This document shows positions 13,245-39,131 of a stretch of DNA of 64,000 nt, piece by piece; position 1 is the stretch's first letter; each line of letters begins with the position of its first letter. This DNA is from Aquificota bacterium (GTDB lineage Bacteria; Aquificota; Aquificia; Desulfurobacteriales; DQVG01). The notes beneath the pieces were generated by a model that did not search any database, was not told the origin of the DNA, and was given only the letters and a program-made list of their open reading frames with translations. The stretch is from NCBI GenBank assembly GCA_027002265.1, contig JAMOTM010000056.1, positions 30,977 to 94,976 of the forward strand, given 5' to 3'. The translations under genes and the position numbers were made by a program.

Positions 13245-13258
13245 TAGAGTGCCTCTCG

Positions 13259-14428
13259 TTATTTAACAATTATTTTTGCGTGAATAGCTCCAGCTGCCTT
13301 TAAAGCTTCTATTATTGCAATTAAATCTCCGGGGGAAACTCCAAGAGCATTTAAAGTTTTTACAAGATCTTTTAAAGTGGGAGCATTCAACATAAAGATT
13401 TTTCCTTCCTGAGTAATATTTATCTCAGTTAAAGTTTTATTTGTTAAAGCCCTTAGCTCCTCTAAAAAGGCTTGGGTACTATTTCCATTTCCAAATATAA
13501 GTTTATTTATTTGAGGAATTTCTTTAACAGCTACCATAATGTTTCCGTGAGCTACGGCTACAGGATCTATTTTTACATCTTCACCCATAACCACGGTTCC
13601 TGTTCTTTCATCTATAACCACAACCGGCTCTGGATTAATATTAACTTTTAGAGATAGTATTTTATTTATTACATTTACAGGATCCTCATCTAAAGGTGGA
13701 ATAACTTTTATAGTATTTAAATCTACCACTTTACAAACTTTAGCATTAAAAGCTTTATTTATAGTTTTTACAATATTATCTATTACAGTTGGATCATCTC
13801 TAAATTTTTTTAAAACAAAAATTAATCCATATCTAGGGTCAAAAATTTGATTTGGAGTTTTTTCTACAATAGCTCCATTTATTACAATACCTGTTGTTGG
13901 AAAATTTTTTTGAACCTGAGCATTTCTAGTTCCTATTTTATATCCTCCAGTAGAAACAGGACCTTGCGCTAATGCATAAATTTTATTATCTGGACCAAAA
14001 AGGGGGGTCAAAAGTAAAACGCCATTTTGCAAAGATTTTGCATCTCCAATAGAAGATACCCTTACATCTAATCTCATTCCAGGCTTTGCATAAGGGGGGA
14101 GTGTAGTTGTAACCATTACAGCTGCAACATTTTTTGATTTAAAAGTAGTAGTATCTAATTTAACATTAAAACGTCGAAGCATATTTGCGATACTATTTAC
14201 TGCAGCTAAAGAAGAATCTCCAGTTCCATCTAATCCAACAACAACTCCGTATCCAACTAAATAATTTGGTTTATTTCCATATAAAGTGAGAAGCTCTTTT
14301 AAAGTGAAAGTCTTTGAAAAGGAAAATGTTATTAAACTAAAGATATATAAAAAAAAGAAAAAAATTTTTTTTAATATTTTTAACCGTCCTATCTTTACTT
14401 TTCTGCTATTAACTTTTACCATGGCCAA
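13259..14428 (-). CDS. flgI: Flagellar P-ring protein
   Basis: Motifs: LVGYGVVVGLDGTGDS, RVSSIGDAKSLQNGVLLLTPL, C-terminal LNALGVSPGDLIAIIEALKAAGAIHAKI. N-terminal signal sequence. Confidence 0.95.
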   Translation of the reverse strand: MAMVKVNSRKVKIGRLKILKKIFFFFLYIFSLITFSFSKTFTLKELLTLYGNKPNYLVGYGVVVGLDGTGDSSLAAVNSIANMLRRFNVKLDTTTFKSKNVAAVMVTTTLPPYAKPGMRLDVRVSSIGDAKSLQNGVLLLTPLFGPDNKIYALAQGPVSTGGYKIGTRNAQVQKNFPTTGIVINGAIVEKTPNQIFDPRYGLIFVLKKFRDDPTVIDNIVKTINKAFNAKVCKVVDLNTIKVIPPLDEDPVNVINKILSLKVNINPEPVVVIDERTGTVVMGEDVKIDPVAVAHGNIMVAVKEIPQINKLIFGNGNSTQAFLEELRALTNKTLTEINITQEGKIFMLNAPTLKDLVKTLNALGVSPGDLIAIIEALKAAGAIHAKIIVK

Positions 14429-15150
14429 GCACCGGTTATAAGTCTATAGAGCCATCCAGGTGAAGTAACAACTTTGGAGTAATTACGGGTATTATATATT
14501 ATTTTTAAATTAGATATTCTTGTAGAGTCCACTATATTATTTGGAGAAATATCTCTTGGAGAAACTTCTCCAGATATAGTAATTATAAGTTCTTCTCCAT
14601 TAACATTATATTGTTTTTTTCCTAAAATAAATAAGTTTCCATTAGGTAAAACCTCAATAACTTTTGCAGATATATATATATTTTCTAATTTTGTAGAAAG
14701 CTTTCCACTTGAGGAAGATTGAAAATTTGTAGAGGATTGCATAGAAATTCCAGTTTTAAAGTTTAAACCTGCAACATTTTGAGTATTTACACCTAAAAAA
14801 GAATTTAAAGAATTGGAATAGCTTGGATTTTTAGAAAAACTTCGTTGGGTTTGTGTTTCTGCACTTGGAGTTTCAGATACACGAATTAAAATAATATCTC
14901 CTTTTTTCCTAGCTACAGGATAAGCATAAGGATTATCTATATAATTTTGACTAAGTAAACTTCCCGTTATTTTTGGATCTTGAGGTAAAGGGGAATAGTT
15001 TATCTTTTTAGGAGTTAAAGGAGGTAAAGTGATTACTTTAATTTTATTTTCAGGCGTAGGTTTAGGTTGCTGCTCAGAACAACCTAAAAAAAATAAAAAA
15101 AAGATACCTATAAGGAAAATATTTAATTTTTGAGAAAAATGAAATTGCAT
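14416..15150 (-). CDS. flgH: Flagellar L-ring lipoprotein
   Basis: Motifs: GDIILIRVSE, ISAKVIEVLPNGNLFILGKK, ISGEVSPRDISPNNIVDSTRISNLKI. Start moved to ATG 15150 (MQFHFSQKLNIFLIGIFFLFFLGC, lipobox FLGC, RBS GGGGGAA). The longer ORF to 15279 runs through the livJ-like terminator hairpin. Confidence 0.9.
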   Translation of the reverse strand: MQFHFSQKLNIFLIGIFFLFFLGCSEQQPKPTPENKIKVITLPPLTPKKINYSPLPQDPKITGSLLSQNYIDNPYAYPVARKKGDIILIRVSETPSAETQTQRSFSKNPSYSNSLNSFLGVNTQNVAGLNFKTGISMQSSTNFQSSSSGKLSTKLENIYISAKVIEVLPNGNLFILGKKQYNVNGEELIITISGEVSPRDISPNNIVDSTRISNLKIIYNTRNYSKVVTSPGWLYRLITGAWPW

Positions 15151-15254
15151 TAATTCCCCCAAGGAAAACTTATATTTTAAAACTTTTAAATATATTATAC
15201 GGAAAAATATAAAGGATAATGTTAAAAGTTTAAAGAAGAGAAAAAAGAGATATA

Positions 15255-15286
15255 GGAAAAGAAAAGTAAGGGGGAACACCCCCCTT
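15255..15286 (-). terminator. Rho-independent terminator of the livJ-like gene
   Basis: On the minus strand: AAGGGGG-GTGTT-CCCCCTT hairpin (15268-15286), then ACTTTTCTTTTCC, 5 nt after the stop at 15292. Confidence 0.55.
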
Positions 15287-15291
15287 ATAAG

Positions 15292-16422
15292 TTAAGGATT
15301 TATTGTGGTTACATATTTAAATTCACCATTTTCAACTTTTTTAACAACTGCAGGTTTTACAGCATTTCCGTTTTTATCGATAGTAATGTTACCGGTTACA
15401 CCTGGGAAGTTTTTGGTGTTTGCAATAGCATCTCTAATTTTCTCTTTATCTAAAGAATTTGCTCTTTTTATGGAATCAACTGCAACAAAATAAGCGTCAG
15501 CTCCAAGAGCTGCTAAAGAGTTTAATTCTTTATGATAAGTTTCGTGATATTTTTTTACAAACTCTTTTCCAAGTTTTGTAGAAATAGATTTTTCATCAAA
15601 GTGAGTTGTAAAGTAAAGACCTTCTACTGCTTTTCCACCTATCTTTACAAGCTCTGGAGCTTCAGCTCCATCTCCAGATAAAATTTTTGCTTTTATTCCA
15701 AGTTGTCTTGCTTGTCTTGCAATTAAGGCAACTTCTCTATAATAACCTGGAACATAGATGACATCTGGATGAAGATATTTTATAACGGTTAAAATTCCTT
15801 TAAAATCTGTTTGACCGGATTTATATGGAAGTATTCTTATAACTCTTCCACCCATTTTTTCAAAAGCTTTTTTAAAGGATTTTGCAAGACCAACTGAGTA
15901 GTCTTGAGCTATATCCATAATTATTACTGCAGTTTTTGCATGAAGATTATTTCTTGCAAATTTTGCAGCAACGTATCCTTGAAATGGATCAATAAAACAA
16001 ACTCTAAATACATATTTTTTTCCTTTTGTTACTAGAGGATTTGTAGAAGAAGGAGAAATCATAGGAGTTTTATTTTTTTCAGCAACGGTACTCATAGCTA
16101 TAGAGTTAGAAGATGCTACCGCTCCTAAAATAACTTTAACGTTATTTTGTGTAATTAAACGAGAAGCTGCATTTGCACTTTCCGCTTTATCCCCACGGTT
16201 ATCCATTAAAATTAAGTTTATTTTATAGGTTTCTCCGTTAATTTTTACTGTTGGTTCAATTTGGTGAGCAAGTTTAATTCCTTCCCAAGTTTGTTGTCCG
16301 AAAGCAGAAATAGGCCCTGTCATTGGTAAAACTACACCTACATTAACTTGTTTCATAGCAAAAGCTAAACTTAAATTAAAGATTAAAATAGCAAAAAGCT
16401 TAAAAATTTTTTTCATTTTCAT
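15292..16422 (-). CDS. Branched-chain amino acid ABC transporter substrate-binding protein (LivJ/LivK family)
   Basis: Signal peptide, then VGVVLPMTGPISAFGQQTWEG and overall Peripla_BP_6-like pattern. No permease or ATPase genes adjacent. Confidence 0.8.
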   Translation of the reverse strand: MKMKKIFKLFAILIFNLSLAFAMKQVNVGVVLPMTGPISAFGQQTWEGIKLAHQIEPTVKINGETYKINLILMDNRGDKAESANAASRLITQNNVKVILGAVASSNSIAMSTVAEKNKTPMISPSSTNPLVTKGKKYVFRVCFIDPFQGYVAAKFARNNLHAKTAVIIMDIAQDYSVGLAKSFKKAFEKMGGRVIRILPYKSGQTDFKGILTVIKYLHPDVIYVPGYYREVALIARQARQLGIKAKILSGDGAEAPELVKIGGKAVEGLYFTTHFDEKSISTKLGKEFVKKYHETYHKELNSLAALGADAYFVAVDSIKRANSLDKEKIRDAIANTKNFPGVTGNITIDKNGNAVKPAVVKKVENGEFKYVTTINP

Positions 16423-16541
16423 ACCTCCTAAAAGTCCATCTTAAGGGTAAAATAAAAGCAATTGTATTATATTATAACACTAAAAAAATTGCTAAAATTT
16501 TAAACGTATAGTATTTTGCTTTTTTTATCGGAGGCTTTTTT

Positions 16542-19500
16542 ATGAAATATTTTGTCGGAATAGATATTGGTTCTACTACAATAAAAACTTGCGTTTTGGA
16601 TAAAAATAAAAATTTAGTTTATAGCTCTTATAAAAAGCATGAAGCCAAGCAAATAGATAAGTTAATTGAAGAACTTAAAATATTAAAAGAAAAATTTAAG
16701 GATAATTTAGTTTTAACTTTTACTGGTTCTGGAAGTTTTGATATTTCAAAAGTTCTAAATGCTAATTTTCTTCAAGAGGTAAACGCTTTAACACTTGCTG
16801 TAGAAGATGTTTTTAATAAGGAAGTTTCAAGCGTTGTAGAACTTGGTGGACAGGATGCAAAAGTTTTAATTTTTGAAGATGGTTCTACTTTCACGTCTAT
16901 GAATGATAAATGTGCTGGAGGAACTGGAGCAACTATAGAAAGAATAATAAGAAAACTAAATTTATCTTTAGAAGATGTAAAAAAAATTAATTTCTTTGAA
17001 AGAAAAATATATCCGGTAGCTTCTAAATGTGGAGTTTTTGCAGAAAGTGATATTAATTCTCTTCAAAAGCTTGGGGTCCCAAAAGAGGATTTAATAGCTT
17101 CCTTATTTAATGCTATTGTTCTTCAAAATCTAAATATTTTAACTAGAGGAAGAATTCTAAAGCCAAAAGTTTTACTTTTAGGAGGACCTCATTTTCTTTT
17201 TAAAGCTTTAAGACAAGCTTGGATAAAAAATTTATATAAAGTTTGGAGGGAAAAAGGATTTGTAAATTCCTTAGAAGAATGCTTTGAACTTGTTTTATGT
17301 CCAGAAAATGCCTATATATATCCGGCTTTAGGATGCGCTTTGTATGCTTTAGAAAATAATTTTGAAACTACAAAGTTTTCTATAAAGGAGCTTTTAAATT
17401 ATAAAAAGGAATATTTTGAAAAATTAAAAAAGGAAACTTCACAAGAAGGTTTAATTTCTAAAAAAGAGTATGAAGAATATAAAAAGCTTTATCCAGACCT
17501 TCCTAAAGATGAAATTTATAAAAAAATATATTTAGACTTTAAAAAAAAATATTCTCCTAAAGGTAAAGAACTAGAGAAGCTCCCAGAAACTGTAGAAATC
17601 TTTATTGGAATAGATGGTGGATCAACTTCAAGTAAGCTTATTGCAATAGATAAAAATAAAAATGTTGTAGCAAAAGCTTATAGAATTTCAAAAGGTAATC
17701 CTTTAGAAGATATTAAATATCTATTTAAGGATTTAAAAGCTTCTTTAGAAAAAAAAGGAGTAAAAAACATAAAAGTTTTAGGTGTTGCTACTACTGGATA
17801 TGCAAAGGAAATGTTAAAAGAAGCTCTTTGTGCAGATTTAGCTTTGGTAGAAACTGTGGCTCATACAAAAGGGGCCTTGTCCTTTTTTGAAGATATAGAC
17901 GTTATTTGTGATATTGGCGGTCAAGATATAAAAATAATTTTTTTAAAAAACAAAAAAGTTTATGATTTTAAACTAAATACTCAATGTTCGGCTGGAAATG
18001 GTTTTTATCTTCAAAGCACTTGTGAAAGATTTGGCTATAAAATAGAAGAATATGAAAAAATTGCTTTTAAAGCTGAAAAAGCACCTAAATTTAACGTAGG
18101 ATGTGCGGTATTTTTAGAGCAAGATATTGTTAATTTCCAAAGAATGGGTTGGGAACCAAAAGAAATCTTAGCTGGCCTTGCAAAGGTATTACCTTTAAAT
18201 GTTTGGATATATGTTGTCCAAGAGCATAATTTAGAAAAGTTTGGAAAAAGATTTTTACTTCAAGGTGGAACCCAAAGAAATTTAGCTGCAGTCAAAGCTC
18301 AAGTTGATTTTATCAAGTCCTCAGTTAAAGATGCAGAAGTTTTTGTTCATCCTTTTACTGGAGAAGCTGGAGCTTTGGGAGCAGCTTTAGAAATCAGAGA
18401 AAAATATTTAAAAGAAAATTTTGAGAGCTCTTTTATAGGTATAGATGAAGCTATCAATTTAAAATTTGAAGTAGAAACTTCTCCAAAAACAGTGTGTAAT
18501 TATTGTCCTAACAGATGCCTGAGAACATTTATTACTTTTGAAAGAAACAATAAGAAACATTTGTTTATAATTGCTCCCTGTGAAAAAGGTCAAGCTGAAA
18601 GTTTAAAAGAATTTAAAGATATAAATAAAAAGCTTTTAGAAATTGAAAAAGAAAATCCAAACCTTGCGAAGGAAGCTTTAAAGCACCTTTTTAAAGTACC
18701 AAAAATAAAAAATTCAAAACTTAAAGTAGCTATTCCAAGAGTTTTGAACATGTACTCTTTAGCTCCTTTCTTTATAGGATTTTTTGAAAATTTAGATATT
18801 GAAATTGAGTTTTCCCCCTATACAAATGAGAAATTAAAAGAAGAGTATTTAGTAGGAGGAACTATAGATCCGTGTTTCCCAAGTAAAATAGCACTAGCTC
18901 ATACTAGGTATTTACTTGAAAATAGTGATGCTCCAATAATATTTTTTCCAAAAATTCAATACTTACCGACATTTTTGGAAAATACCTTAGATTCCAAAGC
19001 CTGTCCTACTGTAACGGCAACTCCTATGCATGTTTATGCATCTCTAACTTTAGAAGAAGATGTATTTAAAAAGAAAAATAAAATATTTTTAGATCCTCTT
19101 TTAGACTTTAAGCATAAAAATGTTTTAGAAAATTTTCTTTTTGAAACTTTTCAAAAGTTTGGATATAAAAAAAATCAAATAAGGGAAGCTATTTCATATG
19201 GATTTTTAAAACAAAAAGAATATATGACTACTATGCAAAATTTAGGTAAAAATGTTTTTAAACTTTTAAAAGAAAAGAATAAAATAGGTGTGGTTTTACT
19301 TTGCAGAAGCTATCACTTGGATCCGGGAATTAATCATCAAATTCCAGATGAAATTCAAAAAAGAGGCTACCCTATTTTAACCATAGAAAGTTTACCTTTA
19401 GATGAAGCTCCCACTTTAAGTATTCAAGATGTTTGGCAAACAAGTTATAGTGAAAATTCTAATAGGAAAGTCTGGGCAGCAAAGTATGTGGCCTCTAAAG

Positions 19501-28140: not shown

Positions 28141-28594
28141 ACTTAGTAGAAAAAAGAAATATTTTGAAGCTTTAAAAAATTTAGATATTTTGAAAATTGA
28201 AAGTAATTTTGAGGTCATAAAAAGTGAGGAAGAAAAGGAAGATTCAAGGGTAGTCTTTAAAATAAAAATATCTTTAAAAGATGGTTTAGAAGTAAGCTCC
28301 CACGGAGAAGCTGAGCTTAAATCAAAAAATGCATTTAGATTAGCTGAAACAAGAGCCTTTTTAAGGGCTTTGGAGATAATATATGCTTTAAAAGGTTTAT
28401 CTTTTAAAGTTAAAGAAGAAAAGCAAAAAAGTGCTGAAAATAGAGGTCCTTCAAAAAAACAAATAGGTTATCTTAAACACCTTGCAAAGAGTTTGGGAAA
28501 AGATTTGAAAGATGAGGAAATAAAAAATTTAAATGAAAAGGAAGTTAGAGTTTTAATTGAAAAATATAAAAAAGAACTTGAGGAGAAAAAATGA
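28133..28594 (+). CDS. Hypothetical protein
   Basis: 153-aa ORF overlapping both neighbours (8 nt with the MFS stop; ATGA with the next gene). C-terminal helical module PSKKQIGYLKHLAKSLGKDL...EVRVLIEKY. Confidence 0.45.
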   Translation: MNELSRKKKYFEALKNLDILKIESNFEVIKSEEEKEDSRVVFKIKISLKDGLEVSSHGEAELKSKNAFRLAETRAFLRALEIIYALKGLSFKVKEEKQKSAENRGPSKKQIGYLKHLAKSLGKDLKDEEIKNLNEKEVRVLIEKYKKELEEKK

Positions 28595-29079
28595 AAATAG
28601 CTATATGTTCAGATAGTCACGATCGAATGGACAAAATTTTAAAGTTTGTAGATTTTGTTATAAATAAAAAAGTAAATTTAGTTATTCATCTTGGAGATTT
28701 TGTCGCTCCATTTACTTTTAAATTTGGCTTTAATAAACTAAAGGAGCACAACATTTCCTTTTTAGGAATTTTTGGAAACAATGATGGGGAAGTTTTCGGA
28801 TTATTAAAAACATGTTATGGAGAAATTTATAAGCCACCTTATTTTTGTGAAATATTTAATAAAAAATTTCTTCTTATGCATGAACCTTATTTTGTGGAAA
28901 ATTTAAGTTTAAAGGATGTAGATTATATTCTTTATGGCCACACTCATAAACAAGATATAAGAAAAAAGGAAAATTACACGATAATAAATCCAGGAGAACT
29001 TTGTGGCTATTTAACAAAAAAAGCAAATTTTGTAATTTTGGATTTAGAAAATAACAAAATAGAAAAAGTAGAAGTTTAA
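28591..29079 (+). CDS. Metallophosphoesterase, YfcE/MJ0936 family
   Basis: Motifs: ICSDSHD, GDFV, GNNDGE, HEP, GHTH. Confidence 0.85.
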   Translation: MKIAICSDSHDRMDKILKFVDFVINKKVNLVIHLGDFVAPFTFKFGFNKLKEHNISFLGIFGNNDGEVFGLLKTCYGEIYKPPYFCEIFNKKFLLMHEPYFVENLSLKDVDYILYGHTHKQDIRKKENYTIINPGELCGYLTKKANFVILDLENNKIEKVEV

Positions 29080-29109: not shown

Positions 29110-30402
29110 ATGATAAAGGAAATATCTCCTATAACAAGAATAGAAGGTCACCTTAAAGTAGAGGTAGAGACCTCTCAAAATGTGGTAAAAAAAGCAAAAA
29201 TAGTTGGGGAAATGTATAGAGGTATAGAAAAAATTGTTGAAAATAGGCATTTTATGGATCCCATAAGAATAGTTCAAAGAGTTTGTGGACTTTGCTGTGA
29301 AGTTCATGGACTTGCTTCATGTAAAGCTATTGAAAACGCAATAAATGCTCCAGTTGAACCAAATGGAGACAAAATAAGAGATTTAATTATTTGTTTGAAT
29401 ATAATTAATGATCATTCTCTACATTTTTATCAATTAACTTTACCCGATTATATAGATTTTAGCGTTTTAGAAAATGTTCCTCTTTTTTTAAAAAATCCTC
29501 CTAAAGCTCCAGATTTAATTAGGGATAAAATAGTTGCAAAAAAATTTTTAAAAAAATATTTAGATTCCTTTAAATTAAGAACTAGAGTTTGTCAAGGAAT
29601 TGCTATCTTAGGAGCTAAAACTCCATTTGCTCACGCCATTTTAGTAGGTGGAGTTTCTACGAATATAAGAACAGATGATGTAGGATTTTTTGTATCTTTA
29701 CTAAATGATGTAAAAGACTTTTTAGAGGAATATAAAAAAGATATTTTATTTTTAGCGGAAAACTTTAAACATTTATTTGATATAGGAAAAGGCCCTGGAA
29801 ATTACCTTTCAGTTCCTCACTTATATGTTCCGGGTAAAGTTTTAATAAATGGAAAAGAAGAAGAATTTGATGTTTCTTATGTTACGGAAGATGAACCTAA
29901 ATATGGATTTATAAAAACTCCAAGATATAAAGGATATGTAGTTGAAACAGGCCCTTTAGCTGAATGTATTTTAACGAAAAATAAAGAGTTTTATGATTTA
30001 TTAAAGAAATTAAATGTTCCAAAAGAAAAAGCTAACTCCTTAATGGGACGGCTTCTTGCAAGATATGTAGATAGCTTAATGGCTTATAGATATGCAAAAG
30101 ATCTTGTAGATAGTATTTTGGCAAAAGGAAATAATATTTATTGGAAAGATCCAAAGGGACTTTATGAAGGAGAAGGTTATGGTTTTGTAAAAGCTCCAAG
30201 AGGAGCTTTAATTCATTATATAAAAATTCAAGATAGTAAAGTGAAAAAATACTCTATTATTTCTCCATCTACTTGGAATTTTTCTGCAGGTGGTCCTGTA
30301 GAAATAGCTTTAAAGGGATGCCCGGTAGAAAGTGAAGATTTAGTAAATGTAGGAAGAATAATAAGAAGCTTTGATCCATGTACAGCGTGCTCTATTCAGT
30401 AG
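29110..30402 (+). CDS. [NiFe]-hydrogenase large subunit (short form, no C-terminal extension)
   Basis: N-terminal ITRIEGH and RVCGLCCEVH (RxCGxCxxxH). C-terminal Ni-Fe ligand pair in FDPCTACSIQ, immediately followed by TAG. RBS GGAGG. Confidence 0.9.
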   Translation: MIKEISPITRIEGHLKVEVETSQNVVKKAKIVGEMYRGIEKIVENRHFMDPIRIVQRVCGLCCEVHGLASCKAIENAINAPVEPNGDKIRDLIICLNIINDHSLHFYQLTLPDYIDFSVLENVPLFLKNPPKAPDLIRDKIVAKKFLKKYLDSFKLRTRVCQGIAILGAKTPFAHAILVGGVSTNIRTDDVGFFVSLLNDVKDFLEEYKKDILFLAENFKHLFDIGKGPGNYLSVPHLYVPGKVLINGKEEEFDVSYVTEDEPKYGFIKTPRYKGYVVETGPLAECILTKNKEFYDLLKKLNVPKEKANSLMGRLLARYVDSLMAYRYAKDLVDSILAKGNNIYWKDPKGLYEGEGYGFVKAPRGALIHYIKIQDSKVKKYSIISPSTWNFSAGGPVEIALKGCPVESEDLVNVGRIIRSFDPCTACSIQ

Positions 30403-30517
30403 GAAATTAATTTTTATAAAATAAATTTAAAATGGAAACTTAAAACTAATAAGTTTATTGGACGAAAATAATAAAAAAAATTTTTGGGATAAGGGGTCTT
30501 TTTAGGAGGAAATAAAA

Positions 30518-31441
30518 ATGAAAACTACTCGAAGAGAACTTTTAAAATATTTAGGTAGCTTAGCTGCTCTTTTAGGACTTCCAAAAAGTGTGGGAAAAGC
30601 TTATGCTGAAACTTTACGAAAACTTAAGGAAGGAAAAACTAAAATAATAATTATTTCTGGTCAGGCTTGTTCAGGATGTATTTTATCTGCAACTTATTCG
30701 GATGGTCCTTTTTTTGATGATTTAGTTATTATGATAAAAAATATTTTACATCCAACTTTAGCAGCTTCTCAGGGGAAAAATTTTATAAAAGAACTTTATA
30801 AAGTTATAGATGAAGGAGATTATATTTTAACTACGGAAGGTGCTGTTCCGGGAGAGGAAAAGTACTGTGAATTTGGTGGAAAACCTTATTCTGAAATTCT
30901 TTTAGATGCAGTAAGAAATGCTAAATTTTTAGTAAATATGGGGACATGTGCCTCTTATGGGGGTGTCCCTGCAGCAAAAGGTAATCCTACAAAAGCTATG
31001 AGTGTGCCCGAGTTTTTAAAGAAAAACGGTGTAAATATTCCTTATGTAAATGTTCCAGGATGCCCAGTTAGAAGCGATAGAATACTTGCAACTTGGCTTT
31101 ATATAGCAACTTTTGATAAGCTTCCTCCTATAAATCAAAAAATTAATGCTCCAAAAATGTTTTATGAAGATATTATTCACTATAACTGCGAAAGATATCA
31201 GTACTTTACTCAAGATATATATGCTAAAAAACCTGGAGATAAATTTAAATGCCTTTTGGCCCTTGGATGTAGAGGACCTATAACTTATGGAGATTGTTCT
31301 TATAAACGCTGGAACTGTGGAAAAAATTATTGTATAGCCGCCGGAACACCTTGTATAGGTTGTTCTAATCCAAAATTTCCTTTTGATAAGCCAATTTATA
31401 CATCTCCACAAGAAGTTTTAAAAGGTTTAAAGATTCAATAA
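30518..31441 (+). CDS. [NiFe]-hydrogenase small subunit with twin-arginine (Tat) signal peptide
   Basis: Tat motif: MKTTRRELLKYLGSLAALLGL...AYA. FeS ligand motifs: GQACSGC, GTCASYGG, PGCPV, HYNCERY, CLLALGCRGP, CIAAGTPCIGCSNP. Confidence 0.9.
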   Translation: MKTTRRELLKYLGSLAALLGLPKSVGKAYAETLRKLKEGKTKIIIISGQACSGCILSATYSDGPFFDDLVIMIKNILHPTLAASQGKNFIKELYKVIDEGDYILTTEGAVPGEEKYCEFGGKPYSEILLDAVRNAKFLVNMGTCASYGGVPAAKGNPTKAMSVPEFLKKNGVNIPYVNVPGCPVRSDRILATWLYIATFDKLPPINQKINAPKMFYEDIIHYNCERYQYFTQDIYAKKPGDKFKCLLALGCRGPITYGDCSYKRWNCGKNYCIAAGTPCIGCSNPKFPFDKPIYTSPQEVLKGLKIQ

Positions 31442-31455
31442 GAGGGTGAGGAAAA

Positions 31456-33795
31456 ATGAGATTAAAGTATTTATTACCCGGAATATCTTTTGTAACTTTA
31501 TTGATTTTAGCAATAATTTTCTTCATATATTCTCAATATTCCATAAATTCCATAAAAAAAGAAAATATCAACTTAGCTAAAGCTTTAGGTAATACTGCTT
31601 TTAGTAGTGCTTATGATTCTTTACGAAAAGGTAATATGGTACTTTTTGATCATATTTTAAAGTCTATTGCTTCTCAAAAAATTATTCGTGAGTTTAGTTT
31701 AGCAGATAAAAATGGAGTAATAGAATACTCTTCAAATCCATCTTTACTTGGAAAAAAAATCAATATTGAAGAAATAAAAAAGAAATTTAAAATAAAAGAA
31801 TTAAAACCAGAAACAATGTATTTAACTTTAGATAAAAATGAGAAAGCAACTTTAGTTTTTAAAGCTATAAAAACAATTCCTTATTGTATTAGATGTCATA
31901 CTACCTGGAAGCTAGGAGAAATAAATTCCTATTATATTTTAAAAGTAGATGCAAGAAATATATTAACCGTAATAACTACAACCCGACTAGTGAACCTTCT
32001 TTACTTACTGGCAGCTATTGTTATTTTATTTATCACTTTATTCATTTTAAATCACCAATTTATCAGACCTCTTGAAAAAGTGAAAAGTGCTTTAAATGAA
32101 ATTTCTAAAGGAAATCTGAAAGTTAAACCTAAAATCTATGTAAATAACGAAATTCAGGAGGTTGCAAGAGCATTAAATAGAACTTTAAAAAATATAAATT
32201 TTATATTTTCTCAAATAAATGAGTTTGCAGAAAATGTAAATAAAGGTAATGTTTTTGTAAATATAGATTATGGACAAACTCAAGGAGATTTTAGGGCTAC
32301 CTTAGAAAAATTAAATGAAATAGTCAAAAATCTTCAAAAATTTGTGAAAGGATTAGAAGATGTTTTAAATAAAATTGAATCTATGAACATAGGAGTAAGT
32401 GTAAATGGAGCTTCTGCTCGGGGAAATTTAATAAAGATTTATGAGTATTTCCAAAAGGTATTTAATGATCTTAAAGAAACTATAGAAACAGTAACTAAAT
32501 CTATAAAAGAACTTTCTAGCAAACTTGCGGAAGGAGAATTTGAAACCGAGGATCCCCTTAAATATAAAGGAATATGGCAAGATATTGTTATATCTTTAAA
32601 TGCTATTGTAAATAGTATTGAAAAAGTAACTACCTATTTAAAAAGAATTCTTGAAGATACTATAAATGGAAAATCTTCTCAAATTGATATAGAAGAGTTT
32701 AAAGGAATTTATAGAGAAATTATTGAAAATCTTTTAGATTTTCAAAATAAACTTAAAGAAGCAATTAAAGAAGTTCAAAATATTTCTAAAGCTATTGCAG
32801 ATGGTAATTTTGATACATCTTTAAATACAGCTAGTTTACCACCGGCTCTATTACCAATAGGAGAGGCTGTGGAAGATATAAAAAATAATATTAACCGTGT
32901 TATTGTTGCTCTTGATAAAGCTATTAAAAAAATGGCCATGGGAGATTTATCTGTTCGTATAAATGAAAACGAATTTAAAGGTAAGTATAAAGAAATTGCC
33001 AAAATGTTTAATTATGGAGTTAGACAGCTTGCTCAAGCCATTGCAGTTTCTTTATCTACTTTTGAACTTATTGGTGAAAGAGTAGAAAAAACAATTCAGG
33101 AACTTATGAAAACCATAAATACCTTCAACATGCAAAATAAAAAGACTGAAGAAATTTCTCAGGAAATCCTACGTCTTATTGACGTTCTAAGGAATTTAAA
33201 GAAAGAAATGGATAGGGTAAAACAAATTTCCAGGGTTACCGAGGAAGATTTAGTGAAAACTCAGGAATCCTTTGAACATATTGCAAATATTCTTAAAACC
33301 CGTCTAGAAGAACTTGATAAGATCGTTGATATTATTCTTTCTATTTCTGAGCAAACAAATTTACTTGCCTTAAATGCGGCAATTGAAGCGGCCCGTGCTG
33401 GAGAAATGGGAAGAGGTTTTGCAGTAGTTGCAGATGAAGTTAGAAAGCTCTCAACTCAAGTTTCCGAACAAGCTAATGAAATACGTTCTACTATTTCTCA
33501 ACTTTCAGATGATATTAGAAAATATATCTTTGAAAATCTCTCTAAGCTTCTTGAAAATATTAAAAATAGCATGAATAACCTTTTAGATGTTATTGAAAAA
33601 GTATCTACCACTACCGAAAAAGAAGCATCTCAAGCTGAAAAATCTAAAGAAGATATTATTGCGCTTGAAAATCTTGCAAAAGAATCTAGCGAAAAAATTA
33701 AGAAAATTGTGGAAGACTTTAAAAAGGTTGAAGAACTTCTTACAGATTTATCCGAAGTATCTAAGAAATTTAAAGTTGGAGATTTAAAGAAATAA
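31456..33795 (+). CDS. Methyl-accepting chemotaxis protein with periplasmic CXXCH (heme c) sensor domain and poly-HAMP-like array
   Basis: TM1 about aa 6-25 and TM2 about aa 176-199. Periplasmic loop with C144-I-R-C147-H148 (nt 31885-31899), the only Cys residues in 779 aa. About 400 aa of repeated HAMP-like units. Canonical hairpin [35 protein letters not shown]. Confidence 0.9.
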
Positions 33796-33872: not shown

Positions 33873-34151
33873 ATGAAAAAGTTGTTAGCAATTTTAGGTA
33901 TATTGTTTGGAACAGCTTTTGCTCAATGCTATGTACCTTGTCAAACTTGCGTATCTGGATATGTTGTAATGTATCCCGGAACATATGTTCCAAATGTTTG
34001 TAATAATCCTTGTTGCTGTGAATACTGTAGTTTTTGTTATTCTTCTTGCTGTTTGCCTTCAGGGTGTATTTACGGCCCTGTTAATTGTCCAACATGTTAT
34101 CCAACATGCTGCCCAACTCAGTCTATAATTGTTAATCAAGTGGCAAACTAA
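33873..34151 (+). CDS. Secreted cysteine-rich small protein (16 Cys in the 75-aa mature part)
   Basis: Strong RBS GGAAGGAGGAG. Signal peptide MKKLLAILGILFGTAFA|Q. The mature part is C/P/Y/T/V-rich, with CCC, CC, CxxC and CxC runs and no K, R, H or D. Confidence 0.7.
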   Translation: MKKLLAILGILFGTAFAQCYVPCQTCVSGYVVMYPGTYVPNVCNNPCCCEYCSFCYSSCCLPSGCIYGPVNCPTCYPTCCPTQSIIVNQVAN

Positions 34152-34161
34152 GGAGGAAAAA

Positions 34162-34509
34162 ATGAAAAAAATATTTATATCTTCTTTAGTAGTCACATCC
34201 TTCCTTCTTGTAGGTTGTGAATGTACTGATGTACAAACAACTCCTCCGCAAACTACTTCTTTTCAAGCCAATATTCCACAAATTCAAACATGTGATGCAT
34301 GTGCTAATCAAACAAGTACAAAAATTACGAAGATTTTACCTACTGAAAAAAAAGTAATTCAAAATGTAATAACCGTAAATCCAAAACCAATATGTACTTG
34401 CCCAAGCATACCAATGGTTCCAGCAAATTATTTTGTAACATATGAACCACTTAATGATTATCCAGTCACCTATAAGACAAAATACACAGAACCTTGCTCT
34501 TGCTACTAA
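34162..34509 (+). CDS. Small lipoprotein with four CxC/CxxC pairs
   Basis: ATG 34162 preceded by AGGAGG (34151-34156). Lipobox LLVGC. Cys pairs: CEC, CDAC, CTC, CSC. The ORF-track start 34129 lacks an RBS. Confidence 0.65.
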   Translation: MKKIFISSLVVTSFLLVGCECTDVQTTPPQTTSFQANIPQIQTCDACANQTSTKITKILPTEKKVIQNVITVNPKPICTCPSIPMVPANYFVTYEPLNDYPVTYKTKYTEPCSCY

Positions 34510-34521
34510 GGGGGATAAAAA

Positions 34522-35346
34522 ATGATAGAAATTATAATAAAAGCTATTTTTGCTATAGCTCAAGTAGTAAATTTAAATACAGTATATACGTATACACCTT
34601 ATACCAAACCTACAATACAACCTTATAATCCAACCTTGCCTTCTACACAACTTAACTTGCAAAATTCCCCAAAAATTGTATATCCTTTACCTCAAAATAC
34701 TAATAATTTACCTAGAGCAGCTCAACCTGTACCCCCGCTAACCTATCAACCTCAAAGAAGATCTAATACAGTTCAAAATATTCAAATATATACAACTTTT
34801 CCAAAAGCTTCATATTTACCATCTATATCAAGAAAAGGTATACTTTTACCTATTTTACCTTCAAGAACAAAAATAGGATACTTAAATTCAAATATTATCT
34901 TTTTAGCTGATCAACTTTTAAGAAATATGGATAAGGAATTTAAAAAATATCCCGTTATTGTAACTACATTTGTAAATTTAAATAATTTTAAAGAAACAAG
35001 TGATTTAGGAAGACTACTAAAGGAAAATTTAGTTCATGAACTTCAAGTAAGAGGTTGGAAGGTTATTGATATTAATTATATGCCTAAAATTGTTGTAAAT
35101 AAATATGGAGAATTTGTTTTAACAAGAGATATGAAACGTATTATAAAAAAATATAAAGTTGCCTCAATTTTAGCTGGAACTTATACAGTAGCTGATAATT
35201 CTCTAATTGTAAATGCTAAAATTATAGATGCAAAAAGTGGTCTTATTATTTCAACCGGACAATTTGAGATTCCTTTAGAATTTGTTGAGGATTTATTAAA
35301 AAATAGTTCTTTAAAACCTGTTGAAATTATAGTAACGGGAGAATAA
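34522..35346 (+). CDS. Envelope protein: P/Q/T/Y-rich low-complexity N-terminal half + FlgO-like (LpoB/CsgG/TolB-N-like) C-terminal domain
   Basis: RBS AAGGGGGA. The C-terminal VIVTTFVNLNNFKETSDLGRLLKENLVHELQVRGWKVIDI ... ILAGTYTVADNSLIVNAKIIDAKSGLIIS fits the FlgO-family pattern as I remember it. Confidence 0.5.
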   Translation: MIEIIIKAIFAIAQVVNLNTVYTYTPYTKPTIQPYNPTLPSTQLNLQNSPKIVYPLPQNTNNLPRAAQPVPPLTYQPQRRSNTVQNIQIYTTFPKASYLPSISRKGILLPILPSRTKIGYLNSNIIFLADQLLRNMDKEFKKYPVIVTTFVNLNNFKETSDLGRLLKENLVHELQVRGWKVIDINYMPKIVVNKYGEFVLTRDMKRIIKKYKVASILAGTYTVADNSLIVNAKIIDAKSGLIISTGQFEIPLEFVEDLLKNSSLKPVEIIVTGE

Positions 35347-35356
35347 AAGGAAAATA

Positions 35357-35938
35357 ATGAAAAAATTTTTATCCCTTTTTCTTGTAGGAGCGGGATTTCT
35401 CCCGCTCTACTCTTGTGTTTATCAGGAAGATGTTACACCTTATTATATTGACAAATATTCTGAGCCTATTTCATACGCCAATATAAAGTATGTTCCTTTA
35501 GATGATCTTTTAAATCACATAAAACCTCAAGAAATAAAATATGTTTTTGATAAAATAGTAATCTCTATGTGTCCATGTATATGTAAATATAATAAAGTTA
35601 TTGTTACAGATTTACCAAATCTTTCTTATTTAAAAGTAGATAAGCTTTCCTCTTATTTTGGAGATACTTTAAGAACATCTGTTTCAGATATGTGTCATAA
35701 ACCTACCATTTTAGCTGAATTTTCAAAGTATCTAAAGATAAATACTCTTGGAATAAAAGTAAGAAGTAGAAAAGTAAATGATCTATTAAATAAAAAGTAT
35801 AAAGGATATTCTGTAGCTTTTTTAACAGGAACTTATCAAATAAATAATGATAAAATTACTGTGTTTGTAAAGTTTATAGATGCAAAAACTGGGAAGATTC
35901 TTTGTGCCAAGGAAGGTATTATAAATATATATCCTTAA
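35357..35938 (+). CDS. Lipoprotein with FlgO-like C-terminal segment
   Basis: Signal plus lipobox-like FLPLYSC. C-terminal VAFLTGTYQINNDKITVFVKFIDAKTGKIL repeats the motif of the preceding gene. Confidence 0.45.
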   Translation: MKKFLSLFLVGAGFLPLYSCVYQEDVTPYYIDKYSEPISYANIKYVPLDDLLNHIKPQEIKYVFDKIVISMCPCICKYNKVIVTDLPNLSYLKVDKLSSYFGDTLRTSVSDMCHKPTILAEFSKYLKINTLGIKVRSRKVNDLLNKKYKGYSVAFLTGTYQINNDKITVFVKFIDAKTGKILCAKEGIINIYP

Positions 35939-35959
35939 TTTACTTTAGGGAGGTAAAAT

Positions 35960-36307
35960 ATGAGTGAATGTATATTTTGCAAGATTATAAATAGGGAAAT
36001 TCCCTCTGAAATTGTATATGAAGACGATAAAGTAATTGCCTTTAAAGATATTAATCCTCAAGCTCCTATTCATATTCTTATTTGTCCAAAAAAACATATA
36101 GAAACTGTAAATGATATAAAAGAGGAAGATAAAGATCTTATTGGTCACATATTTTTAGTAGCTAAAAAAATTGCAAAAGATTTGAATGTAGCTGAAAGAG
36201 GTTATAGAATCATAGTTAATTGTAACAAAGAAGGTGGCCAAGAAATCTATCATATTCATTTTCATTTTTTAGCAGGAAAACCACTTGGAAAACTTGTTTG
36301 TCCTTAA
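35960..36307 (+). CDS. HIT-family (histidine triad) nucleotide hydrolase
   Basis: Motifs: CIFCKII, AFKDINPQAPIHILICPKKH, histidine triad HIHFHFLAG. Confidence 0.93.
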   Translation: MSECIFCKIINREIPSEIVYEDDKVIAFKDINPQAPIHILICPKKHIETVNDIKEEDKDLIGHIFLVAKKIAKDLNVAERGYRIIVNCNKEGGQEIYHIHFHFLAGKPLGKLVCP

Positions 36308-36362
36308 CTAATATTTATATTTAAAAGTAAGTGAATCTAAATTGAGAAAATGGAGCTACTTT

Positions 36363-36971
36363 ATGAAAGGTTTTGGTTATTACAAAGAAAAACTTTCAAA
36401 CCGTCAAATCCCCATTTTTGCAGATTTAGACTTAAATCTTGATAAAGGAATAGTTTTTATAAAAAATATACGTCCCTCAACTTTAGCAGCCATTTTAAAA
36501 TTTGGAGATTTAATGGAATTTGTCTTTACAGATAAAGATAATAAGTCAAAAGATATAGTTTTAGAGATCGTAACGGAGACTGCTCCTGGTATATATCAAG
36601 GAAAAATACTAAAGCTTTCTGAAAATAAAAGAAGATTTCCCCGTTTTAATGTTAGAAACTTAGATGTAAGAGTTATTGTTGCCGGAACTTACTTTGGATT
36701 TTTAAGAGATATTTCTTTAAGGGGTTTTTCGGTAGAAATAAAGGAAGTTCCCGATAAACTTTTTTTAAAAAAAACTTATCCTGTGAAAATACTTTATAAA
36801 GGTAAAGAATATAAGTTCTCTTCTCAACTGGTAGGTATGTCATATGATGATGAGAAAGAATGTTATATTCTTAGATTCAGAATTTTAGAAAGTTTAAGAA
36901 ATATTAAACTTATAGATGAACTTTATAAAAAACTTTTTGAAGATGAGTTAAAACTATTTCTAAGTTCCTAA
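36363..36971 (+). CDS. PilZ-domain c-di-GMP receptor protein
   Basis: PilZ motifs RRFPR (RxxxR) and DISLRG (DxSxxG). ATG 36363 with GGAG upstream is preferred over TTG 36342. Confidence 0.75.
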   Translation: MKGFGYYKEKLSNRQIPIFADLDLNLDKGIVFIKNIRPSTLAAILKFGDLMEFVFTDKDNKSKDIVLEIVTETAPGIYQGKILKLSENKRRFPRFNVRNLDVRVIVAGTYFGFLRDISLRGFSVEIKEVPDKLFLKKTYPVKILYKGKEYKFSSQLVGMSYDDEKECYILRFRILESLRNIKLIDELYKKLFEDELKLFLSS

Positions 36972-37016: not shown

Positions 37017-39131
37017 TTATTTATCATTTTTTAACTTTTCTAAATATTCTTTAACCTTTTCAAAGGGCATAGGAGGAGAGAAATAATATCCTTGTAGATA
37101 ATCGACTCCTAGTTTGTTTAAAAGTTTTGCAGTTTCTTCATCCTCAACAAATTCTGCAATGGTTTTTAAGTGGAGTTTTCTTGCCATAATTACAATAGTT
37201 TCTACAATTTCCTGCTTTTTCCTATTAATTTTTAAATCTTTAACCAAAGATCCGTCTATTTTAAGGTATTTAATAATTCCTCGAATAGATAAATCCAAAA
37301 CTGTATGTAAAGAAGAAAATCCAGTTCCAAAATCATCTATTGCAAAATCTAAATTTAGTTCTTTTCTTAGTTTTTCAATTTGCTCTAAATTTTCTAAAAT
37401 AAATTGTTCGGTAATCTCAAAGACGGTATTTCCAAGGTATATGTTTTTTAACTCTTCCAAAATATGTTTAGAATACAAAGATTTTGGAGACAAATTAACA
37501 AAAAGCTTTACAGGAAGTTCTTTTCTAATTTTGGATATATATTTAAGCATTTGAATATCAATATCTAAAATAAGACCTGTTTCAATAGCTACATCAATGA
37601 ACATACCTGCAGGTAAAACTTTATTATTATCTACAATTCTTGCAAGACATTCAAACGCGTATGGTTTGTATGTTTTTGAGTCTACGATAGGTTGAAAATA
37701 AGCAATAACTTTCTGTTCTTTTATAGCTTTTTGTAAAATTTTTTCTTTTTCCATAATATCTTCAAGTTTTAAACGAAAATCTGCATGACCTTCATAAATA
37801 ACTATTGAACCCTTGCTTTGGTTTTTTGCATAATCTTCCAAATATTCAACAAAGGAAAAAAAATCACATGAATTTTTTAAACATTTAGAACAATCTATTT
37901 TTTCCTTCACTACCATAGTAAATTTTGGAATATACTCTAAACCATTTTCTAAATATATGGGTTTTTCAAGTTTGTCTTTTATACTTTTTAAAAAAGCATA
38001 ATCCTTAAATTTTTTATCTTGAGAAGGAATGAAAATTACAAAAGTATTAGACCAAAATCGTGAGATTAACGGATTAAAATCTTTAAAAACAGATTTTATT
38101 CTTTCAGCAATTAATCTTAAAAGATTATCTCCAGATTTCCTACCGTAAATTTCATTAAATCTTTTAAACTTTACAAGATCTAAAATAATGATATATCCTT
38201 TTTTATTTTTTGTATACTCAAAAAATACATCTCTGTTTAAAGTATTTGTTAAATCATCTTTGATAAGGAGTTCCTCCATTTTTTTTCTTTCTTTACAGAA
38301 TAAAATTAAGGAAGAAATAACAAGAATAACTCCAAATAAAATAGAGATTATAGATAACCTTTCGTAAAATTTCTCTTTCTTTTGTAACTTTGTTTCTTCC
38401 TCTAAAAGTTCCATCTTTGTATTTTTTAAAAATATATAAAATTGATTTTTTAAATCCTCAAATATGCAATTTATTAAGTTATCTATTAAGTTTGTAGAAT
38501 TAAACATATTTTTGTCAAAGTGTAAATTACATTTTTGTATAAAATCTTCAGAATAATAGAATTTTAGTAACCTAATTAAGTGATAAATATAATCCTTGGA
38601 TATATTACTATTAGTAACAAAAGTTTTTGAAAAATCTTGAAGATGCCAATATAAATTTTCTTCTTCATTTTGTAAATCCTTAAATTTTAAAGGAAAAGAA
38701 AAAGAACCTTTTCCTTGCAAATTTTTAAAAATTCTTTTCTCGAGTTTTCCAATAAGAAATGCAAAATCAAAAGTTTGGGCTTGATTGTGTTTTATCTTAT
38801 TTATTAACACTTCTAAATCTTTTTTTAATTTTTGATCATCTAGTAAATTTAAAGTTTGCTCTAATATATTTTCAGACTTAATTTTTAATTTTTTGTTTCT
38901 TTTAGAAAGGGTATAATATATTTCAGCTTGATGAATATTTATTAAAGCTTGAAAATATTTTTCTATATTATGCAAATTATAATTTACATAATGATACTGC
39001 GTTAATTTTTGATAATAATCTTCCTTAAGCTTTAAACCTATAGCTCCAATAATAAAAAAAATCATAGATAAAAGTCCTATTATAGGGCTTATAATAATTT
39101 GAAAACGTTTCTTTCTTGTCATATCCTTCAC
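37017..39131 (-). CDS. Membrane-anchored degenerate-GGDEF + EAL c-di-GMP phosphodiesterase
   Basis: Two TM segments flank a ~240-aa N-terminal domain. The GGDEF-like domain has RFWSNTF in place of GGDEF. EAL domain motifs: FECLARI, NLSPKS, EITE, DDFGTGFSSL, KIDGSLV, AEFVE, QGYYFSPP. Confidence 0.85.
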   Translation of the reverse strand: MKDMTRKKRFQIIISPIIGLLSMIFFIIGAIGLKLKEDYYQKLTQYHYVNYNLHNIEKYFQALINIHQAEIYYTLSKRNKKLKIKSENILEQTLNLLDDQKLKKDLEVLINKIKHNQAQTFDFAFLIGKLEKRIFKNLQGKGSFSFPLKFKDLQNEEENLYWHLQDFSKTFVTNSNISKDYIYHLIRLLKFYYSEDFIQKCNLHFDKNMFNSTNLIDNLINCIFEDLKNQFYIFLKNTKMELLEEETKLQKKEKFYERLSIISILFGVILVISSLILFCKERKKMEELLIKDDLTNTLNRDVFFEYTKNKKGYIIILDLVKFKRFNEIYGRKSGDNLLRLIAERIKSVFKDFNPLISRFWSNTFVIFIPSQDKKFKDYAFLKSIKDKLEKPIYLENGLEYIPKFTMVVKEKIDCSKCLKNSCDFFSFVEYLEDYAKNQSKGSIVIYEGHADFRLKLEDIMEKEKILQKAIKEQKVIAYFQPIVDSKTYKPYAFECLARIVDNNKVLPAGMFIDVAIETGLILDIDIQMLKYISKIRKELPVKLFVNLSPKSLYSKHILEELKNIYLGNTVFEITEQFILENLEQIEKLRKELNLDFAIDDFGTGFSSLHTVLDLSIRGIIKYLKIDGSLVKDLKINRKKQEIVETIVIMARKLHLKTIAEFVEDEETAKLLNKLGVDYLQGYYFSPPMPFEKVKEYLEKLKNDK

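Follow-up and report, generated by a model that had tools for sequence, protein, structure and literature searches.

Within the window analysed here, a stretch of 64,000 nucleotides from contig JAMOTM010000056.1 of an Aquificota bacterium (assembly GCA_027002265.1), three genes follow one another on the same strand: those for the large subunit of a [NiFe] hydrogenase, for its small subunit and for a methyl-accepting chemotaxis protein (MCP) whose periplasmic loop carries an attachment motif for a c-type heme. With a probability of about 0.7, judged from comparative sequence analysis and structure modelling, we propose that they form a single periplasmic H2-sensing unit in which the hydrogenase reduces the heme of the receptor. 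The module recurs in about 100 bacterial species and is probably a dedicated, apparently undescribed H2-sensing device. Somewhat less firmly, we favour the wider view that it represents a widespread and unrecognised class of [NiFe] hydrogenases, exported by the twin-arginine translocation (Tat) pathway and devoid of a C-terminal extension, whose sole task would be to set the redox state of c-type heme Cache domains, mostly on chemoreceptors but also on histidine kinases or enzymes of cyclic di-GMP (c-di-GMP) metabolism. The features concerned are:

29110–30402, plus strand: [NiFe] hydrogenase large subunit, 430 residues (Pfam NiFeSe_Hases, E 6.8e-83).
30518–31441, plus strand: [NiFe] hydrogenase small subunit, 307 residues (Pfam Oxidored_q6 and NiFe_hyd_SSU_C).
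31442–31451, plus strand: ribosome-binding site GAGGGTGAGG of the MCP gene, read directly from the sequence.
31456–33795, plus strand: MCP, 779 residues (MCPsignal 99.8 bits, HAMP 54.8 bits).
31531–31989, plus strand: periplasmic sensor domain of the MCP, residues 26–178, a single Cache (PDC) fold with one predicted covalent c-type heme.
31636–31638, plus strand: codon of Met61, candidate distal (sixth) heme ligand.
31885–31899, plus strand: CXXCH motif C144-I-R-C147-H148 for heme c attachment, in a short helix before the last β-strand.

The association of sensor and hydrogenase extends far beyond the window. In orthologous loci, the triplet of large subunit, small subunit and heme-carrying MCP is kept at large-subunit identities of 80% (L006), 73% (L003–L005) and 62% (L002), in the last case amid flanking genes entirely different from those of the window, and at 40% identity (L007) the sensor domain is found on a GGDEF-EAL protein encoded directly 3' of the small subunit. 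A locus search of GTDB genomes with the large subunit as single protein gave no matches. When GTDB species-representative genomes were searched with the sensor domain alone, in its two subfamilies, 26 and 80 loci were obtained, 106 in all, and their neighbouring genes were annotated by BLAST against reference domains and tallied. The small subunit lies directly upstream and on the same strand in 95 of the 106; a hydrogenase is nearby, though not directly upstream, in 3; the sensor gene sits at a contig edge, and is therefore uninformative, in another 3; and no hydrogenase is present in 5. A hydrogenase thus adjoins the sensor gene or lies near it at 98 of 103 informative loci, and the conserved order runs from the large subunit through the small subunit to the sensor protein. 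The first-pass annotation of this stretch had named conservation of the gene pair in relatives as a test beforehand, and had cautioned that, with genes as tightly packed as in this genome, adjacency by itself says little; the 95 loci, found through the sensor only, favour the pair and do not bear out the caution.

What follows the sensor domain is variable. At the 95 adjacent loci, the output is an MCP in at least 77 and a histidine kinase in 8, and at one the sensor open reading frame (ORF) carries a GGDEF domain only, with the EAL domain in the next ORF; GGDEF/EAL-linked relatives include L007 and L033, and the variants in Desulfuromonadales are kinase-linked. Because the same sensor domain is joined to MCP, histidine-kinase and GGDEF/EAL outputs behind the same kind of hydrogenase, we regard the arrangement as a sensor module and not as chance packing. 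Its carriers are found in Aquificota, Deferribacterota (Denitrovibrio, Seleniivibrio), Desulfuromonadales and many Desulfobacterota, as well as in Verrucomicrobiota, Planctomycetota, Omnitrophota and one spirochaete, and two cultured carriers, Denitrovibrio acetiphilus DSM 12809 and Desulfocarbo indianensis SCBM, have intact modules.

The sensor is moreover specific to one kind of hydrogenase. A control scan with a profile of the extension-bearing relatives of the large subunit yielded 80 loci, in 63 of which the large subunit has a C-terminal extension (13–16 residues); none of these 63 has a sensor within 5 kb. Five loci are extension-less, and the sensor is present in three of them, while at the remaining 12, where the end of the large subunit was not located, it is found in none. 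One of the two extension-less loci that have no sensor belongs to the same metagenome-assembled genome (MAG) as one of the orphan sensor genes: in MAG AMR_MDS_4946, L051 encodes a heme-sensor MCP without a hydrogenase and L128, on another contig, an extension-less hydrogenase without a sensor, which suggests that the module is split there between two places of the genome. Pairwise distances between sensors correlate with those between large subunits (0.91) and small subunits (0.93; Mantel p 0.001), and sensor-hydrogenase correlations remain at 0.72–0.91 within subfamilies, the value for the two hydrogenase subunits against each other being 0.97. At the level of sequence distances, this shows that sensor and hydrogenase have long been inherited together, with a contribution from shared species history.

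The hydrogenase itself is of a familiar lineage with unfamiliar traits. In searches of the PDB, the best matches of the large subunit are periplasmic [NiFeSe]/[NiFe] enzymes of group 1 (E ∼1e-62, as against 3e-32 for the group 2a enzyme Huc), and that of the small subunit is a NiFeSe small subunit (E 4e-47). The large-subunit motifs are RVCGLCCEVH (L1) and DPCTACSIQ (L2), the latter followed by the stop codon, so that the C-terminal extension is zero. Across 80 syntenic modules, the Ni-Fe cysteines C59, C62, C424 and C427 of the large subunit are invariant, as are C51, C54, C117, C144, C182, H221, C224, C245, C251, C260, C272, C279 and C282 of the small subunit, which provide the full ligand set for three Fe-S clusters, including His221 of the distal cluster. 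Residues 1–30 of the small subunit form a twin-arginine signal (MKTTRRELLKYLGSLAALLGLPKSVGKAYA, before E; motif TRRELLK), the RR motif recurs in the examined small subunits of both sensor subfamilies, and the signals of the relatives are much like that of E. coli HyaA. This signal would place the hydrogenase in the periplasm and not in the cytoplasm, in the same compartment as the CXXCH motif in the periplasmic loop of the MCP. The small subunit has no C-terminal membrane anchor (no hydrophobic window was found), and no gene for cytochrome b, cytochrome c3 or another cytochrome was found near the hydrogenase, either at the window locus or at related loci, in agreement with the earlier description of an enzyme with no obvious electron acceptor. 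Among the traits expected of a group 1 uptake enzyme, the cysteine pairs of L1 and L2, the Tat signal and the three Fe-S ligand sets are thus present; the departures are a large subunit with no extension past the second Ni-ligand motif, the gene order from large to small subunit, and the absence of an adjacent cytochrome gene.

All sensor-linked relatives share the extension-less end. Among the best 120 hits, no residue follows the last Ni-ligand motif in any sequence with one of the two sensor-linked L1 types (CHEVH-like or CP[VI]SH); two further types are likewise without an extension, and most other relatives carry one of 13–16 residues. Large subunits without an extension are characteristic of the cytoplasmic regulatory hydrogenases that sense H2 (HoxC/HupV). 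The large subunit is also short, with 430 residues here, 472–504 in most sensor-linked relatives and 495–566 in ordinary ones. Judged against the relatives of 472–504 residues, the 430-residue Desulfurobacteriaceae type is without about 18 residues after position 122, 6 after 237 and about 16 after 260, and its last residue, His in nearly all relatives, is Gln in the window and Leu in L003. A third extension-less type is seen at L114:5001–9247, on a JGI metagenome contig, with RTCGCCPYAH as its L1 motif; it is followed by a small subunit and then by an MCP with a larger periplasmic domain and two heme motifs, CTNCH and CIKCHTHWKKGEEGG, and is, by its sequence, a di-heme variant of the hydrogenase-sensor module.

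The other half of the module is the sensor domain. Hydropathy places the hydrophobic segments of the MCP at about residues 6–27 and 177–200, so that residues ∼26–178 constitute the periplasmic loop, and the protein has two cysteines in total, C144 and C147, both within YCIRCH; direct count and hydropathy thus agree with the first reading of the sequence, which had noted a CXXCH motif in the periplasmic loop formed by the only cysteines of the protein. A word-indexed protein search with the N-terminal 247 residues of the MCP found no matches. With residues 26–178 as query, HMMER, run exhaustively against 1.84 billion cluster representatives, retrieved 102 proteins, 101 of which have a single CxxCH at the equivalent position, mostly as C[ILV]RCH, the exception being a fragment of 121 residues; as judged from these sequences, the motif is conserved far above chance. 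In an alignment of 94 full-length homologues, the sole invariant columns are M61, L82, C144, C147 and H148, and across the 80 syntenic modules M61, F64, L82, C144, R146, C147 and H148 are 100% conserved and W151 99%. The signature of the family can be written as [KR]G[NE]M...EFSL...YSS...C[ILV]RCHxxW.

An AlphaFold2 model of the domain, built from an alignment of 32 sequences, has a mean pLDDT (predicted local distance difference test) of 93.7 and a pTM (predicted template modelling score) of 0.87 and shows a long N-terminal helix, a second helix starting at M61 and a five-stranded sheet (strands 52–59, 63–67, 96–101, 106–114 and 131–140 in model numbering, with the CXXCH helix at 117–121). 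The sensor is therefore confidently modelled as a single Cache fold. In line with this, Foldseek matches in the PDB are single and double Cache (PDC) sensor domains, with the extracellular domain of WalK, PctD and DctB on top and CitA and DcuS lower. The heme-binding Geobacter domain GSU0935 appears at rank 36 (TM-score 0.37–0.43), for which the swapped dimer of its crystal form may be the reason. The heme of GSU0935 has His144 as proximal ligand and is also bound by Met60 when reduced, a bond given up on oxidation (PMC8396549); GSU0582 and GSU0935 have midpoint potentials (Em) of -156 and -251 mV and a redox-linked His/Met switch (PMC8396549). The description of the sCache_heme family, which includes DUF3365/Tll0287, GSU0582 and GSU0935, places the CXXCH motif as it is placed here (2026 preprint PMC12889525).

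At the level of sequence, these known families are distant. The comparison with DUF3365/Tll0287, proposed at first pass, revealed no Pfam-level membership: PF11845 scores 13.3 bits against the window MCP, below its cut-off of 24.1, and matches 16 of 32 relatives, all at E ≥ 0.0034. PF21563 reaches a best E of 3e-6, in 11 of the 32 relatives, the one member inspected scoring 14.5 bits against a cut-off of 27. Sequence searches of the PDB, made with the single sensor sequence and with three different profiles, gave chance matches only and, at E ≤ 10, none to 3B42 or 3B47. We therefore treat the domain, on the basis of these scores, as a divergent and separately recognisable branch of the heme-binding Cache domains.

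From the observed anatomy, motif invariance, fold, synteny and swapping of outputs, we infer the following course of export, heme binding, electron transfer, ligand switching and behavioural output. The two hydrogenase subunits would be assembled in the cytoplasm and exported together via the Tat pathway, and the MCP would display its single Cache domain in the periplasm, with a c-type heme held covalently at C144 and C147 and H148 as proximal ligand. The hydrogenase would oxidise H2 and pass the electrons through its three Fe-S clusters to the heme of the receptor, which it would reduce, or with which it would equilibrate, so that the redox state of the heme tracks the local H2 level. Such a transfer from hydrogenase to heme is suggested because the enzyme has no cytochrome partner of its own and belongs to a lineage that normally reduces periplasmic c-type cytochromes. 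Reduction would then allow the invariant Met61, at the start of the second helix, to bind the iron, as in Geobacter GSU0935, and the resulting change may be relayed by the second transmembrane segment (TM2), the HAMP domain and a poly-HAMP array to the signalling tip and from there, through CheA, to flagellar rotation. In other lineages, the same pair of hydrogenase and sensor would feed a histidine kinase or a c-di-GMP enzyme.

Several points weigh against this proposal. The adjacency is not absolute, given 5 sensor genes without a neighbouring hydrogenase and 2 extension-less hydrogenases without a sensor, and the mirror-tree correlations are inflated by shared species history. Heme attachment, electron transfer and the response to H2 are deduced from comparative genomics and modelling. 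The known heme-Cache families are matched only below threshold, and the equivalence of Met61 to Met60 of GSU0935 consequently comes from conservation and position and not from alignment or coordinates. Finally, signalling-linked heme-Cache domains have been argued to act as sensors of nitric oxide (NO) (preprint PMC12889525).

The best-surviving alternative, which we nevertheless consider unlikely, is that the receptor is a sensor of redox balance or of oxidants. The hydrogenase would then act as a reset reductase and the signal would lie in heme oxidation, whether by O2, nitrogen oxides or a high ambient potential, so that the receptor reports the balance of electron donors and acceptors, as in energy taxis, and not H2 itself. 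GSU0582/GSU0935 and DcrA are indeed read as redox or O2 sensors, thought to be active once the heme is oxidised and the Met released (PMC8396549), the carriers of the module are mostly anaerobes of redox interfaces, and the obligatory hydrogenase partner would still be accounted for. However, any periplasmic reductant could perform the reset, and a dedicated, ligand-conserved hydrogenase at ∼95% of loci suggests that H2 is what is being read, even if sequence data cannot tell this alternative from H2 sensing.

Still less probable, in our view, is an independent gas or redox sensor, that is, a heme-Cache domain that binds NO or CO or senses potential and is merely co-transcribed with the hydrogenase, as might be the case if one set of conditions calls for both. 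The signalling-linked sCache_heme proteins with NO-sensor-like spectra and slow NO release (PMC12889525) would speak for it, as would the 5 sensor genes without a neighbouring hydrogenase, but the domain family of the window is only distantly related to the proteins of that study. Co-regulation would also leave unexplained why the gene order is fixed across the sampled taxa while the output domain changes, why the sensor is restricted to one extension-less hydrogenase lineage and why that hydrogenase has no electron acceptor of its own. A respiratory role, in which the heme protein anchors an energy-conserving uptake hydrogenase to the membrane or accepts its electrons and the signalling domains are secondary, is very improbable. 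The group 1 periplasmic uptake type of the enzyme and the absence of any other partner gene nearby would fit. Against it, the periplasmic domain that bears the single heme is soluble, neither a heme nor a quinone site is embedded in the membrane, a signalling module makes up the cytoplasmic part in every case, and the extension-less large subunit resembles regulatory enzymes (HoxC/HupV) and not respiratory ones.

The remainder of the MCP is that of a chemoreceptor with an enlarged cytoplasmic part: the first transmembrane segment (TM1), the periplasmic heme-Cache sensor and TM2 are followed by a HAMP domain, a poly-HAMP region and the signalling hairpin, the last with a MCPsignal (PF00015) score of 99.8 bits against a cut-off of 34.6.

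32047–32196, plus strand: canonical HAMP domain, residues 198–247 (Pfam PF00672, 54.8 bits, E 1.2e-14).
32203–33105, plus strand: poly-HAMP-like array, residues ∼250–550 (HAMP_2, 31.4 bits, four stretches).
33289–33522, plus strand: core of the MCP signalling hairpin, residues 612–689 (best stretch of Pfam PF00015).

The first-pass annotation had described five or six recurring HAMP-like units between TM2 and the hairpin. As a region, residues 250–550 do pass the HAMP_2 threshold (31.4 bits against a cut-off of 24.3) in four matched stretches, but not every proposed unit scores alone: units 3 and 6 match HAMP_2 weakly (E 0.015 and 0.002), unit 5 matches HAMP_N3 faintly, and units 2 and 4, scanned singly, show no HAMP match. 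The array is absent from the 555-residue MCP orthologue in L002, which places it outside the conserved core of the module, and it is, as far as these sequences tell, lineage-specific. In Deferribacterales, the hydrogenase-linked heme MCP takes a longer form of about 640 residues (L017, L019, L022, L023, L027, L028 and L196), and C-terminal chemoreceptor zinc-binding (CZB) domains are seen in those scanned, L017, L019, L022 and L196, with matches that are weak to sub-threshold.

The window, which is contained in an 81-kb ENA metagenome contig (ERZ27262635 k141_106674), has a G+C content of ∼26%, and among named relatives the locus is nearest to that of a Desulfurobacteriaceae MAG of the Aquificota. 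The stop codon of the small subunit (TAA, 31439–31441) is separated from the ATG of the MCP at 31456 by 14 nucleotides, GAGGGTGAGGAAAA, which include the RBS (ribosome-binding site) listed above, just as the first pass had placed the MCP gene 14 nucleotides past that stop with an RBS of its own. A promoter and terminator scan found no terminator-like site between these two genes, and its signals were no better than in shuffled sequence; Rfam and tRNA scans of the window gave no matches. The spacer between the large- and small-subunit genes (30403–30517) is AT-rich and 115 nucleotides long, where the closest relatives (L002–L007) have about 10, and promoter and terminator signals in it did not rise above chance. 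Directly 5' of the large subunit lies a gene for a calcineurin-like metallophosphoesterase, in the window (28591–29079) as well as in L003 (4663–5151) and L006 (99–587), and another such gene (L115:4111–5058) occurs just 3' of an extension-less hydrogenase that lacks a sensor.

The organism is flagellated: FlgI and FlgH are encoded at 13259–15279 and two FlgO homologues at 34522–35938. Among the ORFs of the window that were scanned, none was identified as a che gene. Downstream of the MCP, the stretch 33873–36971 encodes a secreted protein of 92 residues with about 20 cysteines, a Cys-rich lipoprotein-like ORF, the two FlgO-family genes, a HIT protein and a PilZ-like protein, and may be a flagellar or outer-membrane accessory cluster; its order is largely matched in L003 and L004 (unannotated ORF, two FlgO, HIT, unannotated ORF) and differs in L002. 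Next to it, on the minus strand, a GGDEF-EAL gene (37017–39131) is intact in the window, and its counterpart in the 73%-identity relatives (L003:12573–13240; L004:9849–10501) consists of three short EAL fragments and is thus apparently a pseudogene there. In L002 (MAG GCA_039832905.1, Desulfurobacteriaceae), the hydrogenase-MCP module is directly followed, at 11906–17241 on the minus strand, by genes that Pfam assigns to HcgB and HcgC (fused), HcgF, NIF3/DUF34 and Fibrillarin_2, together with a radical SAM gene, which by these domains looks like a set for biosynthesis of the FeGP cofactor of [Fe]-hydrogenase (Hmd), in a bacterium.

Taken singly, the ideas combined here are known; what is apparently new, as far as our literature search goes, is the coupling of a group-1-like, Tat-exported, extension-less [NiFe] enzyme to a heme-Cache receptor. 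At vents, in sediments and within syntrophic consortia, H2 serves as a central currency of energy; that cells swim towards it is a long-standing postulate, for which there is an observation in Methanococcus maripaludis (PMC3817446); a receptor for H2 taxis did not turn up in our literature search. The module provides a concrete candidate for such a receptor, with cultured carriers at hand. Should the proposal hold, it would explain for the first time, in molecular terms, how bacteria show chemotaxis to H2, and would provide a second design of H2 sensing, periplasmic and heme-mediated, unlike the cytoplasmic HoxBC-HoxJ. A whole clade of heme-c sensor domains would likewise gain a defined physiological signal: the natural signals of heme-c Cache domains are debated (redox or NO), and the link to a hydrogenase would define one input. 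Some of the enzymes annotated as 'cytochrome-c3 hydrogenase' or group 1 uptake hydrogenase may then be sensory, which affects metabolic inference from metagenomes, and an extension-less large subunit with a downstream CxRCH sensor gene could serve as their marker.

Among known systems, the periplasmic [NiFeSe]/[NiFe] hydrogenases of sulfate reducers (groups 1a/1b), which reduce cytochrome c3, are the best structural-sequence relatives. They share with the window enzyme the Tat signal, the soluble form without a membrane anchor and the three Fe-S clusters, the medial one having a fourth Cys as it does in NiFeSe enzymes, and a periplasmic c-type heme is their natural acceptor, as it would be here. 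The window enzyme differs from them in an extension of 0 as against 13–16 residues, in its reversed gene order and compact large subunit, and in a proposed acceptor that is a receptor domain and not cytochrome c3.

The group 2b pairs HoxBC-HoxJ of Cupriavidus necator and HupUV-HupT of Rhodobacter likewise combine a hydrogenase with a signal transducer and not with a respiratory chain, their large subunits are extension-less too, and the Desulfuromonadales variants of the window module are kinase-linked as well. Group 2b enzymes are cytoplasmic, however, whereas the Tat signal would direct the window enzyme to the periplasm; the latter is group 1-like (E 1e-62, against 3e-32 for group 2a Huc), is encoded in the order large to small subunit, has as partner a periplasmic c-type heme Cache domain and not a cytoplasmic PAS kinase, and has chemotaxis as its dominant output. 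HydDB describes group 2b as histidine-kinase-linked H2 sensing (PMC5037454).

Hydrogenases that feed c-di-GMP or MCP signalling have been proposed before from gene context (PMC5037454, PMC4853749). The GGDEF/EAL-linked relatives L007 and L033 recall [NiFe] group 2c, whose L2 consensus is SFDxCLVCTVH (PMC4853749), but the motif reads SFDPCTACSIQ here and SFDPC[TIL]AC[SA][IV]H in relatives, group 2 enzymes are cytosolic, and the partner in the window is an MCP and not a GGDEF/EAL protein. An assignment to HydDB group 2c, raised by the GGDEF/EAL-linked relative, was ruled out by the L2 motif, the Tat signal and the affinity to group 1, and the cytoplasmic 'group 2 sensing' enzyme of vent Epsilonproteobacteria, an Aquifex-type soluble enzyme, was rejected as well. 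The first-pass impression that no hydrogenase-coupled chemoreceptor has been described has to be narrowed, as HydDB already lists [FeFe] group C2, a separate metalloenzyme class, as 'chemotactic (putative)' and linked to methyl-accepting chemotaxis proteins (PMC5037454); for a [NiFe] hydrogenase with a heme receptor it stands, our literature search having found no paper on such a module, with the key 2016 classification paper outside its scope and a prior mention there possible.

The receptor, in turn, resembles GSU0582/GSU0935, sCache_heme proteins and DcrA, which are also MCPs with a single PAS/Cache-like periplasmic domain and a CXXCH motif. As in the sCache_heme family, this motif lies on a short helix before the last strand and the outputs are of the MCP, histidine-kinase or GGDEF/EAL kind, and as in GSU0935 a Met precedes the heme-binding His by about 85 residues (M61 and H148 here, Met60 and His144 there). 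The word 'hydrogenase' occurs 0 times in each of the two heme-Cache accounts (PMC8396549 and PMC12889525), and the link is thus absent from both. In contrast to these families, the sensor of the window falls under the thresholds of PF11845 and PF21563, has no sequence match to 3B42/3B47 and is of a type almost always encoded behind a hydrogenase.

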